DNA of 63,646 nucleotides, filler included, from Licmophora abbreviata (Eukaryota), in the NCBI GenBank assembly GCA_900291995.1. It is 13 parts of 13 records of this genome, joined end to end, with 100 filler letters (N's around TTAATTAATTAA, not from the genome) between each part and the next. Parts side by side here need not be neighbours in the genome. Positions count along the whole stretch, not along the records: positions 24,860 to 27,712 come from OLMU01005623.1; positions 27,813 to 36,126 come from OLMU01005624.1; 11 more parts are not named here. One strand, written 5' to 3'. Below, piece by piece: positions 6,085 through 38,878 of this stretch. The notes beneath the pieces were generated by a model. That model was not told the DNA's origin. It was given only the letters and a program-made list of their open reading frames with translations, and made no database searches. The position numbers were made by a program, and so were the translations under genes. Positions within the stretch are counted from its first letter, which is position 1. Each line of letters opens with the position of its first letter.

Positions 6085-8344
6085 ATGAGATTTCTATGTT
6101 GCTGGACTGCATTGTGGGGCTTGGCGGCGTTGCAATCGGCGAGGGCGGTCAAACACAACAGTCGAGCTCGAACCAACAGAGAGCTTAGCGTCCTTTTCGA
6201 CTCGGACCACGTTGGATTTGAAGATTACTTTGAGACACAGTATGCTGAGGATCAGCATGTAAAGGCTGCCGGCGGGAAGAAGGACGGAAAGACAGGTAGG
6301 TGCCGCTGGGCGCCGGAGTCGATGGAATGTTCTTGTATCATCTGACCCCGTCATACATCGTTCTTGCCTCTGTGTCTACCTCAGGATCAAAACCAATCCC
6401 AAAGCCGAAGCCAACTCCATACTGGTCGACTGCACAGGCCCCGTACTATTGGCCCACCGCAGGCGACTACTCTCCATCATCTCCTTCCTACTACTGGCCC
6501 ACATATGGCGACAAGCCAGTTCCCTATGCCAAGCCAACTCCCAACCATGGAGGAAAGAAAAGCTCCAAAGGACACAAGCCAACGCCGGCAAAACCTACAC
6601 CACATTGGTGGCAGCCCACTATCGAGTATTCACCCTCAAAGCCCATCCCACCACCATATTACTTCTATCCAACTGGACCAGGACCATCAAAGCCTTCACC
6701 TTATTGGCCAGCTGCATCGCCAAATTATTGGCCAACCTATCACACGGGTAAAGGTGGAAAGAAAAGCAGTAAGAGCGGGAAAAAGTCATCCAAAGGGTCA
6801 TCCAAGGGGAAAGGTATGTGTATGCAGGGTCGTAGCGACGTCCGCCTTGACGTCTCCTTTTGAAACGAACGGGCTCTAAATGTGTCTCGATCCAACATCT
6901 CTATCGAACAGGATATCCGAAGCCGCTGCCATACTGGAAACCTGTTCCACATCCGTCTAAGCCCGTGCCAGTAACGCCATCGGCTCCATTCTTCCCATCG
7001 GCTCCGTTTTTTCCTTCGGCTCCTTTTCCTTCAGCGGTGGTGCCGACGACTGTGCCTGTGGCTGTACCAGTGGCAGCACCTACGCCCGCCCCGACACCTG
7101 ACCCGACGCCCGCACCCGCGAGCCCGATAGCTCCCTCTAGCCCAGTCTCACCAGTGGCTACGACTGGCGATACTGTCACCAGTAATGCGCCACCAAAGGG
7201 TGAGCGCCCAGTGTCGTCTCCAACGGCATCCGCGCCGATTCCGTGGTCAATTGAAGTTATTCCAACGGTAGAAAGTCCGGTTGCGTTGTCTCCAGTAATA
7301 GCCTCTGTTTTGTCCCCGGTATCGGCTCCAAGCGACGGTCAAGGCAACGAGCTGGATGACATCATGGCAACTCGAAGTGTGCAGTCAGCTGCAGTTGTCA
7401 TTGATTTTACGGGGACATTCGATGTAGTTGTTGCGGATAGTGCCATCTTTGACAAAGTGCTTTATCACATTGATGCATACTTGAAGAGCACAATCGGCTC
7501 CGTGCTGGACACCTTTGATTTGCTTTTATCGTTTCACGACAATGAGAGTAATGGAGGACGCCGTCTTGAGTCAACAAAGGCGGATGTGTCCCTCATTATA
7601 CGGCTCTCCAGTCAAGATGAGCTGGCGCTCGCTTCGTTTGACAACGACACGGCGACCAAAATGTTAGAAGATTTTTTTGATAGCGACGCAGTCGAGGCGC
7701 TGGAAGAGGATCTCGTTGCAGCTGGTGTCGACGTGGTCGACATTTCTCGTGTAGAGACTGCAGAGGGAAAGACGAGTGGTCAGGAAAGCACCGAAAGTAC
7801 GCAGAGCAAGACCGTCGTCGCAGCTACGGTCAGTGGCGCCTTTGTCTGTTTGACACTCGTGGGACTGTTGGTGTTCAATCGACGCCGGCAGAGAAAGGAT
7901 TTCCGTGTGGGTCCAGAGGTTAGCGCGCTCAGCACGGTGGACTCGGATGACGAGACCCAGGCGCGTGGCAACGTATCGAGAAAACGATCCAACTCATGGC
8001 ATTCGTCCTCAAGTCGGTCAAGCAGTCGTCACAGCGAAGAGTCATCGTTTTCCTTTTCGAGTCAAAGCAGTTATGACCCAACAGCCATTTCCTTTCCGAG
8101 TCTGCTTCGGTCAGAAAAGGATAGCTACAGCCGGCCCAAGCGACAAGAGCCTGTAGACACCAGTATCCGAATGCTGGACGGGCCAGACCTCGTGGCCAGC
8201 ATGACCGCCTCGGAGCCGACCATGTGGTCAGTCGATGGCTCATCGACATTCCGAGTAGAATCAGCCTCAGCAAAACAGAGGCGACATCGGTACGAGGGGG
8301 TCATAAACTATGAAGAAGATTCCATGGAAGATGTGGGCCTATGA
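6085..8344 (+). CDS. Type I membrane protein with Pro/Tyr/Trp-rich and KSSK/KSGK-rich luminal region (candidate biosilica/SDV protein); exons 6085-6295, 6385-6813, 6912-8344
   Basis: Signal peptide MRFLCCWTALWGLAALQSARA, REL and RRL motifs, YYWP repeats, GGKKSSKSGKKSSK, PT stalk, TM (VVAATVSGAFVCLTLVGLLVF) followed by NRRR, and a Ser-rich tail. Two phase-1 GT-AG introns (6296-6384, 6814-6911) join three ORFs in frame. Confidence 0.75.
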
Positions 8345-13141: not shown

Positions 13142-13241
13142 NNNNNNNNNNNNNNNNNNNNNNNNNNNNNNNNNNNNNNNNNNNNTTAATTAATTAANNN
13201 NNNNNNNNNNNNNNNNNNNNNNNNNNNNNNNNNNNNNNNNN
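13142..13241. other. Artificial scaffold spacer N44-TTAATTAATTAA-N44 (first of 12)
   Basis: Identical 100-bp spacers with stops in all six frames at 13142-13241, 19977-20076, 22462-22561, 24760-24859, 27713-27812, 36127-36226, 45391-45490, 51020-51119, 52343-52442, 55785-55884, 59846-59945 and 61623-61722. Confidence 0.99.
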
Positions 13242-19510: not shown

Positions 19511-20076
19511 GACGCGAATCTGTCTCTTTCCCTATCGCTTGTACAGACTCAGCCGTTGCTTCAATGGCAAAACAGGAGGAAATGAGAGGATATGGTACAC
19601 TTGAAAGACTTCTCGTCAAACACACAGCTTGAAAAGTGTTCTCTTTGCAAAGTTGACAGTCGAGCTTATGACTAAAGATACCGCTTGATTTAGCTCGAGC
19701 ACCATGCATCACCGGGCGCGACACAAAAACACCTCACAAAACCCTGATCCACGCATGATTCATGGCCCCCACGACACTCTCCCATTGCCATTCAAAACTT
19801 CAAGTGTGTCAAAGTAAGAAGCGTGAGTAAATTCTAGCGATGGTGACTCCAGTGTCATCGAATCGAATCAGGATCGACCCCTAGCTCAAACGGGTCTCAA
19901 AGCGGGACTGACGAACCAATCAAAGCGGGACTGGGCCAACCGCCGGTTTGCTCGCGCGATGTGAAGCGGCGTCGCCNNNNNNNNNNNNNNNNNNNNNNNN
20001 NNNNNNNNNNNNNNNNNNNNTTAATTAATTAANNNNNNNNNNNNNNNNNNNNNNNNNNNNNNNNNNNNNNNNNNNN

Positions 20077-22183: not shown

Positions 22184-22561
22184 GTTCAACGCTCGCACAG
22201 ATGTTCTAGTTTCTTTTTTTGGTTGGTAAACTAGTTTCAAGTAATCTGTCGCTGTTGTCCAAAACATCAATGCCACATACAAATTCAAATCTCAATTCGA
22301 TCCCCCTGTCGGCGCAGTCACCCCTGGTCGGCACGCAGTTTATCAATAGTCGTTGCGTCAGAAAACCGATCTAGAATACCTGTAGGCGACCTAAGAGCAT
22401 CGTTGCCACGCTCACCATCGCTCCCTGCATCGGGGAGGGCAGGTCTGATAGATTATTAGGTNNNNNNNNNNNNNNNNNNNNNNNNNNNNNNNNNNNNNNN
22501 NNNNNTTAATTAATTAANNNNNNNNNNNNNNNNNNNNNNNNNNNNNNNNNNNNNNNNNNNN

Positions 22562-24759: not shown

Positions 24760-25150
24760 NNNNNNNNNNNNNNNNNNNNNNNNNNNNNNNNNNNNNNNNN
24801 NNNTTAATTAATTAANNNNNNNNNNNNNNNNNNNNNNNNNNNNNNNNNNNNNNNNNNNNCGGCATCCAACAAACGCCCTAAAGTGACGCCATCACCCGCC
24901 GCCGCCCCCACCACTTCCGCTACTAGTTCTACCACGACGCCACTGTCTACCTTGGCCGCCGCCGCCGCCCTCCTCACTGTACCTACGCCCTCTGTCTCCT
25001 CCCAGGCGGCTCTTGGGCAGTATCAGGCGGCTCGCTCAAAAAAGGCACTGTCTGTGGAGGTGTCAATTTCTTCGATTGAGCGCTGGCTCCGTTTCGAATC
25101 TTCTGTGCAGCCACTGAATCGCAACTCCTCGGCTTCCTCCATGATGCGTT

Positions 25151-26893
25151 TTGCCCGTCGCAATTTTACTGCTGTGTCCTATGCTCCCCGCAGGCCTTCT
25201 ACTGGTCACACCTCCCGTCTTGCTGCTGTTGCACCCATCATATATCACGGACTATGCGCAACGTATGGAGTTCATCAAAGCAAACCAAAACACGCTTCGT
25301 GTACCAGGGGACCTTCACGCCCTCCGGTTCCATCAGCTTGGACCAATCTTTCAATGTTTCTTTGGCGGTTTTCTGCAGCCAATACTAATTGCGCTGGGCT
25401 GGAAACGCATTGATCATCAACGTATAGAGAAATGCTACCAGCAAGCATCACTGTTTGTCACGCTTGTGTATTGGGAATGCCATCGGCAACTTCATGACGC
25501 TTTTGTTGCTTCCCTTAGCAATGCTCAGTGGGCAGACATTACAAAGTTGGTGGAAGACAACGAGGCTGAAGGATTGGCCGCGTTACTGGCAGAATTGTAT
25601 CCTACATGGCAGGAGGAACGCCTGGAGTTGACTAGTGACGAGGAACGGAGACGTGTACTTTTGTTTTGCAAGGCCATGCGCTACTACAGGCTTGCTTGTG
25701 ACTCCATGAGTACTGGCGATGCATGCGCGGTTGAGGCTTGCTACAGTGTTGCTGCAACCATGTGGTGCGCCTTGCGGAAGCGAATCAACTTTGAGATTGC
25801 ACTGGTGCAAATGGATGATTGGTATTCAGAGGCACCGTACTGGATGTTACAGGTCATGCGGGACAACAGGTTTGGCCCCATCCATGATCCCGAACAGGAC
25901 GGCGTGAAGGAATTTAGCCTTGACGGGCTAATTGAGCATCTTCAATGGAAGCAGAAGTGTTTGTCTTTTGGCGCAACTGAAGAGAGTTGGCAGGAACGCA
26001 GTACAAACGTAATGCTGTTTCTTCGGGCGCATGCCTTTGCCACACGCCATTATCATGCCTTTCAGGATGTAGCGGCATATGATGCATGGAAGGATGGAAA
26101 TGAGCCAAACGTCGACCAAGGGGACAAGCGCAAGGATTCAACGAAACCAAAATGGGAGACTGAGCGTGCTATAATAGCCGAATGCCTGACCCTGTCTGAA
26201 GTAGTATGTCAAGAGAAACCTGGTCGACAGCTGCGGTTGAACATCATTTGGGATATTCTTCCGTCCATTTCGACTGTCCGCGAACAAGCGGCGAGTGCCG
26301 GGAGTGCCATACACGGACTTGAGCGTGCGGTCGATGATACCGTTGACCAAATGCTGAATGAAGAGTCGCTGGAGGACACATCCGACAATGTGATATTGAC
26401 AAATGATAGCGAAGAAGGCGAGGAGACGCTGCATGAAACGGAGGAGGCCTGTGCTATCGACGATGCACTGGAGGAGGTGGACGTTGCCAATGAAATGGAA
26501 GCGATGGAAGGTGAAGGAGACGCGGAGGAGGTGGACGATTACATTGGCCTCAATGAAGATGAAACTAGGGGCGCAGAGGATGACTGTGAATCGATTGTCG
26601 AGGTTGGACAGGCGAAACGACAGGCTAGAGTGCGGAAAGTAGAGTTGAATCCCATGGCCCTGACGGATGTTTTCAAAGTGGGACAGGCAAAAATGAGCAC
26701 AATGAAGCTTGTAGCAACACGGCAACGGCGGAGGAAACGCCATGCACGAGAACAAAAGTATCTTCAGGACAACCTTATTGTAAGTCTACAAGCAACGCAA
26801 GCATCTGGAATGTCTCCAGTTGCACAGATTATCACCCATATACCAGTAGAGCCGACAATCACAGCAACTATGCGAGAACAGTTATGGACTTAA
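25151..26893 (+). CDS. DUF6589/Academ-transposase-like protein (5' part missing or disrupted)
   Basis: VPGDLH..FH.L..IF..FFGGFLQP....LGWKRI motif, a helical region with GDA, FSLDGLIEHLQ and a long acidic tail. An in-frame TGA lies at 25142, just upstream. Confidence 0.55.
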   Translation: MPVAILLLCPMLPAGLLLVTPPVLLLLHPSYITDYAQRMEFIKANQNTLRVPGDLHALRFHQLGPIFQCFFGGFLQPILIALGWKRIDHQRIEKCYQQASLFVTLVYWECHRQLHDAFVASLSNAQWADITKLVEDNEAEGLAALLAELYPTWQEERLELTSDEERRRVLLFCKAMRYYRLACDSMSTGDACAVEACYSVAATMWCALRKRINFEIALVQMDDWYSEAPYWMLQVMRDNRFGPIHDPEQDGVKEFSLDGLIEHLQWKQKCLSFGATEESWQERSTNVMLFLRAHAFATRHYHAFQDVAAYDAWKDGNEPNVDQGDKRKDSTKPKWETERAIIAECLTLSEVVCQEKPGRQLRLNIIWDILPSISTVREQAASAGSAIHGLERAVDDTVDQMLNEESLEDTSDNVILTNDSEEGEETLHETEEACAIDDALEEVDVANEMEAMEGEGDAEEVDDYIGLNEDETRGAEDDCESIVEVGQAKRQARVRKVELNPMALTDVFKVGQAKMSTMKLVATRQRRRKRHAREQKYLQDNLIVSLQATQASGMSPVAQIITHIPVEPTITATMREQLWT

Positions 26894-27655
26894 ATTAGGA
26901 ATACGGTCCCATGTTGCATCACAATCTAGAAGTAGTTCAGCATCAGCGGTTGTTCCAAGGCGAGCCAGTAATCTTGGATGCGAGCGGGATTCGTCGTCGT
27001 CTGCAAAATCTACCTTGTATGAAAGGATCCCCGCGACAAGCAATTGCAGGACCATTCGTTTAATCTTGCGTGGCTGTGGAGACTGTGATATGGTATGACC
27101 CCAGATGCTAGCATTGTAGCGCTTGACACGAAACTGGTCGACGAAGGTAGTGTCCAGAATAAGAGAGGGTGCGGCATTGGGACCAAGAAAGATCTCCAAC
27201 AGGGCTTGTCGTAATCCCGTCCGGCTGACCTTGTGGAACTGCTTCATGACGGAGCCATCACAAAACGAACACGCTGGCATTTCCGAAGGGCAACCCGCCA
27301 CAAGGTCTTGCGAATCCACCACGGCAAATGGATTCTGCAACGTTTTTGCAAATGCCAGTAGTAAACAACATCGCGGGAGAACCAGTATCATAGCAAGGTC
27401 ATTCAAGTTGGAAAGCAAAGTTGCACGGTATTCATCAGCAGACAGGAAGCTGTCAGAAAGTGTCATGTCAGGACCCTCCGGCTGATAGGCACGGAGCACC
27501 AACCTAATGTATGACTCCAGCGAAATCAGCACATGGTAGGAGTCATTGGCACTTGGAGGGCGACGGCCCCTCCCTCCAGCACGACCGCGTTCCTGCCATA
27601 AGGAAGTCACACTGGTAGGAAAGTCAGGGGAAACAACAGCATAGATGTGGCTGTT
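26882..27655 (-). CDS. C-terminal part of a RecQ-like SF2 helicase
   Basis: In-frame IYAVVSPDFPTSVTSLWQERGRAG (motif VI, QExGRAGR-like), followed by a Zn-binding C...CP....CSFC and a helical C-terminus. Confidence 0.75.
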   Translation of the reverse strand, partial: NSHIYAVVSPDFPTSVTSLWQERGRAGGRGRRPPSANDSYHVLISLESYIRLVLRAYQPEGPDMTLSDSFLSADEYRATLLSNLNDLAMILVLPRCCLLLAFAKTLQNPFAVVDSQDLVAGCPSEMPACSFCDGSVMKQFHKVSRTGLRQALLEIFLGPNAAPSLILDTTFVDQFRVKRYNASIWGHTISQSPQPRKIKRMVLQLLVAGILSYKVDFADDDESRSHPRLLARLGTTADAELLLDCDATWDRIPNLSP

Positions 27656-27883
27656 TTAGCCGAACGCGTCTGTTTCTTTTTCTGATGAGTCTTGGAGGAC
27701 TGGGAGGGTGGTNNNNNNNNNNNNNNNNNNNNNNNNNNNNNNNNNNNNNNNNNNNNTTAATTAATTAANNNNNNNNNNNNNNNNNNNNNNNNNNNNNNNN
27801 NNNNNNNNNNNNGTTGTGATCCTACAGATTGTCATCTCTACGACTACTCGTAGAGTTCCTTTTTTGCGGGAGGCCGTTGGCAT

Positions 27884-36885: not shown

Positions 36886-38878
36886 CTACCAGTGTCCATC
36901 GCTAAACTGCCCTCCTCCACCTCCACCGCCGTACCCGGAGCCTCCATAACCACCTCCGCCTCCGCCATAGCCACCTCCCCCGTAGCCGCCTCCACCGCGA
37001 GAACCCCCTCCGTCACCACCACCACTGCGATTGTTGTAACGTACATCACGCCCGCCAAATCCTCCGCCACCGCGGCGGCGGCCACCCGAGCGACCGCCTC
37101 CGCCGCCCGAGTATGCGCACATTTGAACGAGCCACGCAGGAACTTCTTGTTCGTTTTCTTCCAACAAGTCACGGAGTTCGCGCGCGACACCACTGTTCTT
37201 TTCATTCACAAACGACAATGCCGCTCCCGTATTACCGGCACGACCGGTTCGTCCAATGCGATGAACATAGTCGTCAATGTTTCCAGGTAGGTCGTAGTTG
37301 ACAACTTGAGTCACATTCGGAATGTCCAACCCACGGCTTGCAACATCTGTGGCCACCATGACGGGGGTGTGCGCACGTTTGAAGGATCGCAAGGCCTCTT
37401 CGCGCTCGCGCTGAGTCTTATCTCCGTGAATCGAGCAGGCGGGAAACCCCCGATTGCACAGCACGTCTTCGACGTAATCGCAGGAGCGCTTGGTCTCCAC
37501 AAAGATAAGGATGAGCCCCTCTTCGATGGTAAGCAAAAAGCGCATGAGAGTGTCGAGCTTATCCTGTTCTTCAACGTACTCGACCGTCTGTGTGACGTCC
37601 TTGGAGGCGGATCCCACACGGCCGACCGTCAAGAAGACGTAGTCCTGAAGGAAATCGCTTGCCAAGCGCTGGATCTGTTCCGGGAACGTAGCGCTGAACA
37701 TCATGGTCTGACGACCGTCTCCGTACGGCATGCCTTCTTCTTCGACGATACGACGGATCCTTTGAAAAAAGAAAGATGGGAGACAACAAGGTGAGTGTAG
37801 GCATTCTAGCGACGTGATGCGACTACAAGCAACGCATGGCAATCTTCGACTGTACTCACTGCGGTTCAAATCCCATGTCCAACATTCGGTCCGCTTCGTC
37901 CAGCACAAGGAACCTCACGTTGTCCATGGCCAAACGACCGCGCTCGATCAAGTCGACAAGTCGACCGGGTGTGGCCACGAGCAAATCGCATCCTCGTTCG
38001 ATCTGACGCAACTGCTCGCGAACTTCCGCACCGCCGTACACCACAACACTGGCGATTCCGGTGCAGTAGGTGAACTTTTTCGCCTCTTCGTGAATCTGAG
38101 ATGCGAGCTCTCTCGTCGGAGCAAGCGCCAATGCCTCGGGATAAGTGCGACGCCTAGCTCCCTCTGGAGGTTCCTGTCCTCCGCTCTTGATCATCGCAAT
38201 GATGATTGGAAATAAGAAACCGGCTGTCTTTCCGGATCCCGTCTGGGCGCAAGCCATCAAGTCGCGTCCGGCACCTGCAATGGGCACACTGTACTTCTGG
38301 ACAGGCGTTGGCCTGGAGTATCCACAGAGCTGCGTATTGCGATACAAATCCTCTCCGATCGTATCAACCGAGTAGGTGTCAATGGGATCAGGAACGTCGC
38401 TACCACTGACTTCGACGGGAATTTTGTCGTAGTTGTCAAAGTTGATTCCAGTAGTCTGCTGGTCCTCCCGCTCAAAGAGCTGACGTTCGAGACGACTGTC
38501 GGGTTTCAAATCACCGTGATAGCCGCGTTCGTTCGTGCGAGCAGAGTAGCGGCCTCCTCCTCCGTATCCGGAGTCGCGATAGGATCCACGACGATCTTCG
38601 CCAGCCACCGCCGTCATTGTTCCAGCGGCTGTTGGTAGCAGAGGGGTAGTTGCCGCCCCCGCGATCATATCCGCCACCGCCGCCGCGGTCGTAGGAGCCG
38701 CCATCACGCGATCCATAGGAGCCACGGCCTCCGCCACGGCCTCCGCCACGTGATCCTCCCCCGTAGGAGCCGCCGCCACCACCCCGCGATCCACCGCCAT
38801 AAGATGAGTTTCGAGAATCACCACCACTCTGAGCAGACGCTGTTGCGTTTCTCAGATGCGGTGGCACATATTTACTAC
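36886..38878 (-). CDS. DDX3: DEAD-box RNA helicase DDX3/Ded1; intron 37760-37859; apparent 1-nt frameshift near 38603; first exon uncertain (possibly from ATG 39173)
   Basis: [67 protein letters not shown], and RGG-rich termini. Confidence 0.95.

Follow-up and report, generated by a model that had tools for sequence, protein, structure and literature searches.

A probable incomplete AcademH-like DNA transposon in Licmophora abbreviata and its helicase-bearing relatives from marine metagenomes

Academ is among the least studied superfamilies of eukaryotic DNA transposons. AcademH, described by Kojima in 2020, is reportedly the helicase-encoding lineage of this superfamily, and to our knowledge the helicase-bearing branch has been reported from animals and fungi only. 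Here we analyse a stretch of 63,646 nucleotides of DNA from the diatom Licmophora abbreviata (assembly GCA_900291995.1), called the window below, which is a chain of unplaced contigs. One of these contigs (positions 24860-27712, OLMU01005623.1) probably holds a cut-and-paste DNA transposon with two genes, an incomplete copy that is of the Academ type and resembles the helicase-bearing AcademH elements. Its intact relatives, found in marine metagenomes, are elements of about 6-7 kb with long inverted repeats starting from 5'-CACCCC, encoding a DUF6589 DDE transposase of 900-1400 amino acids (motifs FDN, GDG, GxxH and LDxxxE) and, on the opposite strand and tail to tail with it, a RecQ-like superfamily 2 (SF2) helicase of about 600 amino acids. 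In the mechanism that we propose, the transposase would bind the inverted repeats and then cut and join DNA, and the helicase might assist by unwinding DNA at the ends, in the target or in a repair intermediate.

Two groups of described elements are compared with this contig. AcademH elements are given 9-10 bp target-site duplications, and AcademX elements 3-4 bp, in the part of PMC10045372 used here, and AcademH is described as low-copy in Basidiomycota, Ascomycota and Mucoromycota in the corresponding part of PMC10799480. The superfamily had no Pfam match in 2017 and was most abundant in Pucciniomycotina (PMC5751038). The other group is Kolobok, which the section of PMC9587614 consulted here characterizes by TTAA duplications, 5'-RR..YY-3' ends, a C/DxxH motif that follows the second Asp and, between this motif and the Glu, a zinc finger. 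As in AcademH, the elements studied here combine a DDE transposase with an SF2/RecQ-type helicase and are bounded by inverted repeats. They differ from AcademH in origin, coming from a marine eukaryote and marine metagenomes and not from animals or fungi, and in their strong sequence divergence, Pfam DUF6589 being detected barely or not at all. The literature that we searched yielded no link between Academ and diatoms or stramenopiles.

The contig is 2853 bases long and lies between two artificial spacers. A preliminary description of this DNA, made from the sequence alone, had reported two convergent open reading frames (ORFs) overlapping by 12 bp on an isolated contig, and both frames are indeed there: ORF A at 25145-26893 on the plus strand (582 codons from stop to stop) and ORF B at 26882-27655 on the minus strand (257 codons), sharing the 12 bases 26882-26893, stop codons included. 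The part of ORF A that is homologous to transposases runs from HPSY at 25232 to the stop (25231-26893, plus strand), and the helicase fragment of ORF B from just past motif V to the stop (26882-27654, minus strand). The PGDLH..FH motif and the acidic region that had been assigned to ORF A were found as described, the former as PGDLHALRFH at 25304-25333 and the latter at residues 386-490, where Asp and Glu make up 37%. ORF A also has an all-helical insertion domain and a basic tail. The motifs of the transposase fragment are GxxH (PGDLH, 25304-25318), GDA..E (25715-25735) and LDxxxE (25919-25936), the Glu of the last being the putative catalytic Glu; the FDN and GDG Asp motifs are missing.

The family to which ORF A belongs becomes visible through its relatives. 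A HMMER search against 1.84 billion representative proteins gave 265 relatives at an expectation value (E) of 1e-3 or below, 87 at 1e-10 or below and 16 at 1e-30 or below, the top one (P0001) having an E of 6.1e-68 and 34% identity over residues 29-550 of ORF A. The alignments always fall on the C-terminal part, about two thirds, of longer proteins of 900-1400 amino acids; a word-indexed protein search with ORF A that covered only near lengths returned no match. DUF6589 (PF20231) was detected at E<=0.01 in 17 of the 25 long relatives scanned, 14 of them above the curated Pfam cutoff, and in the other 8 it was not; it also scored above the cutoff in two of the three transposases scanned from the metagenome loci described below. 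The region of P0001 that ORF A aligns with is the region covered by the DUF6589 model. The scores of the relatives (E of 1e-5 to 1e-12) place the family far from the Pfam model. In Atlas, the clusters most like residues 29-400 of ORF A carry DUF6589 (scores of 0.94-0.95) and serve as leads only; they come from Cnidaria, Chordata, Basidiomycota and Mucoromycota, and AcademH is reported from animals and fungi. These comparisons, which run through relatives at about 25-35% identity, support the assignment of ORF A to the DUF6589 family as judged from sequence. In the literature searched, DUF6589 is named only in one unrelated preprint, and a full-text search for the motif strings of the family gave irrelevant matches only.

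Within the family alignments the conserved blocks follow the order FDNxQ, LVGDGLS, PGDLHxxxFH, GDAxxxE and (A)LDxxxE. ORF A begins right behind LVGDGLS and keeps all the invariant residues downstream of it: in the alignment with its relatives G55, L57, H58, F62 and H63 are nearly invariant columns, and G191, D260 and E264 are invariant. The alignment of ORF B with its own relatives likewise has invariant columns at Q21, E22, G24, R25, C97, C129 and C132. Because the motif residues of both ORFs are invariant or nearly so among relatives, their presence is not due to chance. When 150 listed relatives were compared with the contig by tblastn, there were 145 matches; these are confined to ORF A, and none lies to the left of about 25205. 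Translated in all six frames, 24860-25300 shows no similarity to the 150 relatives or to the metagenome loci, and the missing N-terminal half of the transposase was not found there. In a tree of 44 rows (the alignment for which was made without loci L001, L011, L013 and L017), ORF A falls in a group of four with good support (98/96), nested in a group of 22 (96/93) that also contains the helicase-linked loci L002, L003, L004, L006 and L008.

ORF B had been described as carrying helicase motif VI and a RecQ-type zinc-binding Cys cluster. Motif VI is present as QERGRAGGRG at 27566-27595, and the Cys cluster consists of PRCC at 27365-27376 and GCPSEMPACSFC at 27260-27295, with four Cys. ORF B thus spans the region from just past motif V through motif VI and the zinc cluster to the C-terminal domain, and motifs I-V are missing. 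It aligns to the final 260 or so residues of the SF2 helicases of its relatives, from motif VI to the C-terminus. A C-terminal helicase profile that includes ORF B matches RecQ of D. radiodurans (4q47) with an E of 4e-4 over residues 304-406, including CGNCDVC, and BLM with an E of about 9e-4 across motif VI and the Cys cluster; at E<=1 the profile has 34 matches, 25 of them RecQ-family, and the top six all belong to this family. As these matches to RecQ and BLM cover both motif VI and the Cys cluster, the wording "motif VI plus RecQ-type zinc cluster" is correct, and they support the reading of ORF B as the tail (last 257 residues) of a RecQ-like SF2 helicase with a zinc cluster of the RecQ type, again at the level of alignment. 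Word-indexed protein searches with ORF B, at near and at longer lengths, gave no match, and a single-sequence AlphaFold model was uninformative (predicted local distance difference test, pLDDT, 40).

To see both genes in a more complete context, metagenome contigs were scanned with an alignment of ORF A and nine relatives, which gave 17 loci. An ORF B relative lies directly downstream of the transposase, on the opposite strand and convergent with it, in nine of these (E of 1e-26 to 9e-10). The nine are exactly those with at least 1.9 kb past the projected end of the transposase, and the other eight have 100 bases or fewer; as these eight therefore have no say on the pairing either way, the pairing is found in nine of nine assessable loci, and the earlier claim that a RecQ-like helicase is paired with the transposase is borne out. 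The nine helicase frames are open over 591-843 codons. Three were scanned with Pfam and all three have DEAD and Helicase_C, with RecQ_Zn_bind, RQC and HRDC not detected in these three. For two locus helicases compared with PDB sequences, each of the 37 matches in either list is either RecQ-family (with the names BLM, RecQ, Q1, Q5, WRN and Q4) or named just "ATP-dependent DNA helicase". The helicases of the relatives thus resemble the cellular RecQ proteins (RecQ, BLM, RECQ1, RECQ5 and WRN) in matching this family only, and ORF B, too, can be aligned with RecQ and BLM over motif VI and its four-Cys zinc subdomain. Unlike the cellular proteins, they lie within a transposon, have about 600 amino acids and show no RecQ_Zn_bind, RQC or HRDC in Pfam, and the window copy is without motor domains. 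The viral contigs scanned for transposase relatives contained none.

Inverted repeats surround the gene pair in six of the seven loci examined, with lengths between 50 and 346 nt: 50-55 nt in L001, 107 nt in L002, 346 nt in L004, 59-71 nt in L006, 128 nt in L008 and 103 nt in L013; in L017 none was found. The outermost motif is CACCCC(N4-10)GGGG, which occurs at both ends in L001 (385-400 and 7363-7378), L002 (68-84 and 6404-6420), L006 (477-493 and 509-525) and L013 (295-311 and 6279-6295), at one end in L003 (4572-4590) and as a variant in L004. It is a palindrome capable of forming a hairpin, in which the C and G runs are conserved and the middle is variable. The ends accordingly start with CACCCC and finish with GGGGTG, and the positions of the end motifs give an element length of about 6-7 kb. 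The helicases of the relatives are thus not free-standing host genes, since they sit beside a transposase inside elements bounded by inverted repeats.

The pairing inside inverted repeats bears on the possibility that ORF A and ORF B are two host genes, a cellular RecQ paralogue and a domesticated gene derived from DUF6589, and not the remains of a transposon. Both retained frames are open and keep all the invariant residues of their families, and fusions between host genes and transposon-derived helicases are common in fungi according to the part of PMC10799480 used here. Both are also truncated at the breakpoints described below, the helicase having lost motifs I-V and the transposase its two Asp motifs, and the latter is out of frame with the frame upstream of it; together with the paired position of the relatives, this makes the host-gene explanation the least probable of those considered here, to the point of being hardly credible. 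DUF6589 relatives, a recurrent pairing and instances bounded by inverted repeats have all been found, and the preliminary description of the contig as a transposon with two genes is therefore retained.

A frame of 363-530 codons lies upstream of the transposase (L001, 567-1907; L002, 103-1695; L004, 253-1542; L006, 617-1708; L008, 224-1678). No Pfam family matches it; it is homologous among loci and to the N-termini of the longest relatives in the databases, where it forms one protein with the transposase. Because of this homology the full transposase probably has 1200-1400 amino acids, and the upstream frame is probably its N-terminal part, separated from the rest by an intron or a frameshift. 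Locus L006 has a further peculiarity, in that the right and left ends of the element face each other with 15 nt between them, and the first 483 bases of the contig recur at its end (1-483 equal 6574-7056 at 99.8%), giving a unit of 6573 bases. The contig is a circular or tandem form, which could represent a circle formed by excision, an array of tandem copies or a loop made by the assembly.

Taking the window element and the metagenomic relatives together, we suggest, as a tentative extension of the transposon reading, that they might constitute an undescribed helicase-bearing Academ lineage of marine protists, possibly still active. Such a lineage would have hairpin-capable ends (CACCCC...GGGG), inverted repeats that contain promoters and the 5' ends of both genes, at least one circle or tandem array (the one with its ends 15 nt apart), and a helicase that acts on structured ends. 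Some observations on individual loci may be added here. In L004 the inverted repeat (171-516 and 6447-6792) includes the 5' end of the helicase frame as well as that of the upstream frame. Tandem direct repeats of 186-189 nt are present in L004 (297-671) and L005 (128-685). Some relatives are decayed, with an in-frame stop in the transposase of L001 (4377-4379) and a transposase match spread over two frames in L013 (3143-4190).

To place the family in a superfamily, we compared its motifs with the RNase_H_Academ profile in the supplement of PMC5751038, which has 465 positions and was built from 44 sequences; the comparison covers parts 1, 8, 9, 10, 18 and 19 of the 94 parts of that file. FDNxQ of the present family corresponds to profile positions 1-6 (q f D N w D, with D and N almost invariant), LVGDGLS to positions 186-195 (v v l t g d q p l y), (V/I)xxPGDLH to positions 215-223 (l v p f l g f f H, with a strongly conserved H) and (A)LDxxxE to positions 444-454 (w a y v h l D e a l E, with D and E almost invariant). 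Within these stretches the letters that match are f-D-N (2-4), g-d (190-191), g-f-f-H (220-223) and l-D-e-a-l-E (449-454). The FDN, GD, GxxH and lDxxxE motifs agree in both, and the order of the four motifs is identical and their spacing comparable, as judged by eye against the consensus letters and with no score attached. ORF A itself retains only the last two of the four, PGDLH and LDxxxE. From this match we infer that the family belongs to Academ. The preliminary description had proposed an AcademH-like family; the link to DUF6589 was established through the relatives, and membership in Academ is weaker than had been claimed.

An alternative is a separate lineage of marine protists that has an Academ-like transposase and acquired a RecQ-like helicase independently of the animal and fungal AcademH elements, so that it would work like AcademH and not be a member of it. 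The remoteness of the family from Pfam DUF6589 (no match for ORF A, and the scores of the relatives given above) would fit such a history, as would the uptake of RecQ helicases by more than one transposon superfamily, as set out in the portion of PMC9587614 drawn on here. Common descent is, however, the simplest reading of the same transposase family occurring with the same kind of helicase, and while there is no direct counter-evidence, we consider independent capture improbable.

We also predicted the structure of the transposase core, using residues 90-720 of the L002 transposase and an alignment of 102 rows in AlphaFold, and obtained a model with a pLDDT of 91.6 and a predicted template modelling score of 0.91. 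In a structural alignment against 48,161 representative chains Hermes ranked first (Z 8.8, root mean square deviation 7.8, 293 residues aligned) and the P element transposase second (Z 8.7, root mean square deviation 5.5, 293 residues aligned), where a Z of 8.8 is only middling according to the note that accompanies the tool, values below 8 being common and the model being long. The weight of the search comes from the uniformity of the list, in which rows 1-21 are all DDE transposases or retroviral-type integrases and the remainder of the 50 rows are nearly all other RNase H-like folds (for example Argonaute PIWI, Prp8, UvrC and RAG1). In the model, the Asp of FDN is residue 40 on the first strand, the Asp of GDG is residue 282, just past strand 276-281 (strand 4), and the Glu of LDxxxE is residue 536 on a late helix (531-544). 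The core of the family is thus predicted to be an RNase H-like DDE enzyme, with the acidic residues of its motifs placed in the model as in such enzymes. Projected on the model, ORF A corresponds to the helical insertion domain and the last helix, without the sheet that bears both Asp residues. Hermes (hAT, 8edg) and the Drosophila P element (6p5a) are like the present family in having an RNase H-like core with a large helical insertion between the second Asp and the Glu; they are unlike it in that identity is about 10%, there is no match at the sequence level and the present family has no C/DxxH, so that the likeness is one of fold only.

Since hAT and P element transposases are grouped with Kolobok in the pages of PMC9587614 considered here, these top matches raise the question of whether the element could be a member of the Kolobok superfamily with a RecQ helicase, on the model of KolobokH from fungi or Kolobok-1_CCri from a red alga. 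The same source material records that Kolobok lineages encode RecQ helicases, on the complementary strand in Kolobok-1_CCri, and that Kolobok occurs in a diatom, Fragilariopsis cylindrus. The general plan of a DDE transposon with a RecQ helicase is shared. The features by which Kolobok is recognized are different from those found here. The ends of the relatives begin with CA (CA...TG) and not with RR, and no TTAA adjoins them in L001, L002, L004 or L013, where the flanks may be chimeric. The place of the C or D in C/DxxH is taken by a nearly invariant Gly (G55 of PGDLH), giving GxxH as in g-f-f-H of the Academ profile. No conserved cluster of Cys and His that could represent the zinc finger before the Glu is seen among the invariant and nearly invariant columns between H58 and E264, and the FDN and l-D-x3-E motifs match the Academ profile. 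A Kolobok affiliation therefore appears very improbable, and the element is treated in what follows as an AcademH-like transposon.

The state of the window copy was examined with related sequences from other sources. Five sequencing runs share 0.05-0.10 of the sampled words of the contig (no RNA run is among the runs listed as sharing them), and the contigs of four (X1-X4) were aligned to it. On the left, X1, X3 and X4, which are marine metagenomes, have records that resemble 24860-25230 and differ from it at 3-18 places each; all of them cease to match at 25230, and beyond this position the records of the three runs share one continuation that is unlike the window. Protein homology to the family starts with HPSY at 25232 and ends at 27655. 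On the right, one record is identical over 27552-27654 and then has other letters, which, read by hand on the minus strand in the frame of ORF B, give RALGGAGLDD. This restores motif V, G-x-A-G-(I/L)-D, which is present in all nine relatives and missing in the window. Related contigs and protein homology thus agree on breakpoints at 25230/25231 and 27654/27655, and the contig is made up of a left flank L (24860-25230), a transposon core (25231-27654) and a right flank R (27655-27712), the latter not part of the helicase.

These flanks account for the in-frame stops upstream of both ORFs, from which the preliminary description had suggested a decayed, intron-split or misassembled copy. The stops are real: a TGA in the frame of ORF A at 25142-25144 (plus strand) and a TAA at 27656-27658 (minus strand). 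They do not mark decay inside the genes, as they lie in L and R respectively, outside 25231-27654. The suggestion of a decayed or misassembled copy was right in substance, since the copy is cut at the two breakpoints. An alternative in which the upstream frame is connected with ORF A through a 46-base intron (25148-25193) was considered and dropped; related contigs keep the upstream frame open past 25230, and the change of frame between L and ORF A is explained by the breakpoint.

L contains an open frame on the plus strand (ASNKRPKV..., rich in Ala, Pro, Ser and Thr) that runs in from the contig edge and is out of frame with ORF A; in related copies it would begin with an ATG at the position of the contig edge, as read from a loose end. 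The peptide shows no similarity to the upstream ORF1 of the relatives. The bases from 27654 or 27655 to 27712 are preceded in three runs (X2, X3 and X4) by the reverse complement of the left end of the contig, and one X4 record joins R to this reverse complement with 12 letters between them; R is therefore an inverted copy of the sequence just upstream of L. On this arrangement L would be the 5' region of the element, with an N-terminal coding part, and R would be part of the terminal inverted repeat and of the 5' untranslated region. The reverse complement of the last bases of the contig (27690-27712) starts with ACCACCC, which may be compared with CCACCCC at the ends of the relatives, and the contig end may be the real end of the element.

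The window copy is accordingly a deletion derivative or else the result of misassembly. Read most simply, it is a derivative in which the 3' halves of both genes were kept together with the terminal and 5' regions, and the catalytic 5' halves were lost. Lacking two of its three catalytic acidic motifs as well as the entire motor of the helicase, this copy can make neither enzyme, and it could move only if intact copies supplied both.

Several results weigh against the identification of the contig as an AcademH-like copy, in addition to the middling Z score given above. At the level of the ORFs themselves, the Pfam search suggested in the preliminary description identified neither: ORF A had no match at E<=1 and ORF B only a chance-level one (DUF7563, E 0.21), and it is the relatives that carry DUF6589, DEAD and Helicase_C. 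Searches of PDB sequences gave one chance match for ORF A (E 0.47) and none at E<=10 for ORF B. The family assignment consequently passes through the distant relatives and not through ORF A and ORF B, and the step from the family to Academ is the unscored comparison of four motifs with consensus letters. A Foldseek search of the L002 core model against the PDB had no match at E<=0.001, with Hermes and RAG1 in weak rows. The target-site duplication, which in AcademH is 9-10 bp, was not seen at the ends of the five relatives inspected (L001, L002, L004, L006 and L013), where the metagenome flanks may stem from different copies. There is no second copy of the element within the window and no inverted repeat inside the contig itself. 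Finally, no aligned record spans either junction and most of 25436-27547 is uncovered by the aligned records, and for this reason the contig could be an assembly chimera of an intact element.

The kind of element proposed here is already known, and what the present data would add is a marine lineage of a little-known group of transposons. If the assignment is right, the helicase-bearing Academ elements would have a wider host range, with a divergent branch present in a marine eukaryote and in marine metagenomes. In annotating protist genomes, both DUF6589 proteins and "orphan RecQ-like" genes could then be assigned to transposons. The relatives are complete elements, with both genes, ends and a confidently predicted fold, in which the role of a RecQ-type helicase in cut-and-paste transposition could be tested.

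The contig is separated from its neighbours in the window by spacers of 100 bases, each consisting of 44 N, TTAATTAATTAA and 44 N, which are artificial and identical and number 12 in the window. Those at 24760-24859 and 27713-27812 divide it from the preceding contig and from what lies behind it, and others are at 13142-13241, 19977-20076 and 22462-22561, with seven more elsewhere. As the contigs are joined by these spacers, genes on either side of a spacer are not genomic neighbours. The other contigs of the window carry ordinary eukaryotic genes, among them PP2A B56, PIG-X, a protein kinase, an RPE65-type oxygenase and a DEAD-box helicase. The last is on the minus strand at 36889-38851 and occupies two frames (DEAD at 37859-38851 and Helicase_C at 36889-37914), suggesting an intron or a frameshift. 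This gene is one of the ordinary genes of the host and has no relation to ORF B.

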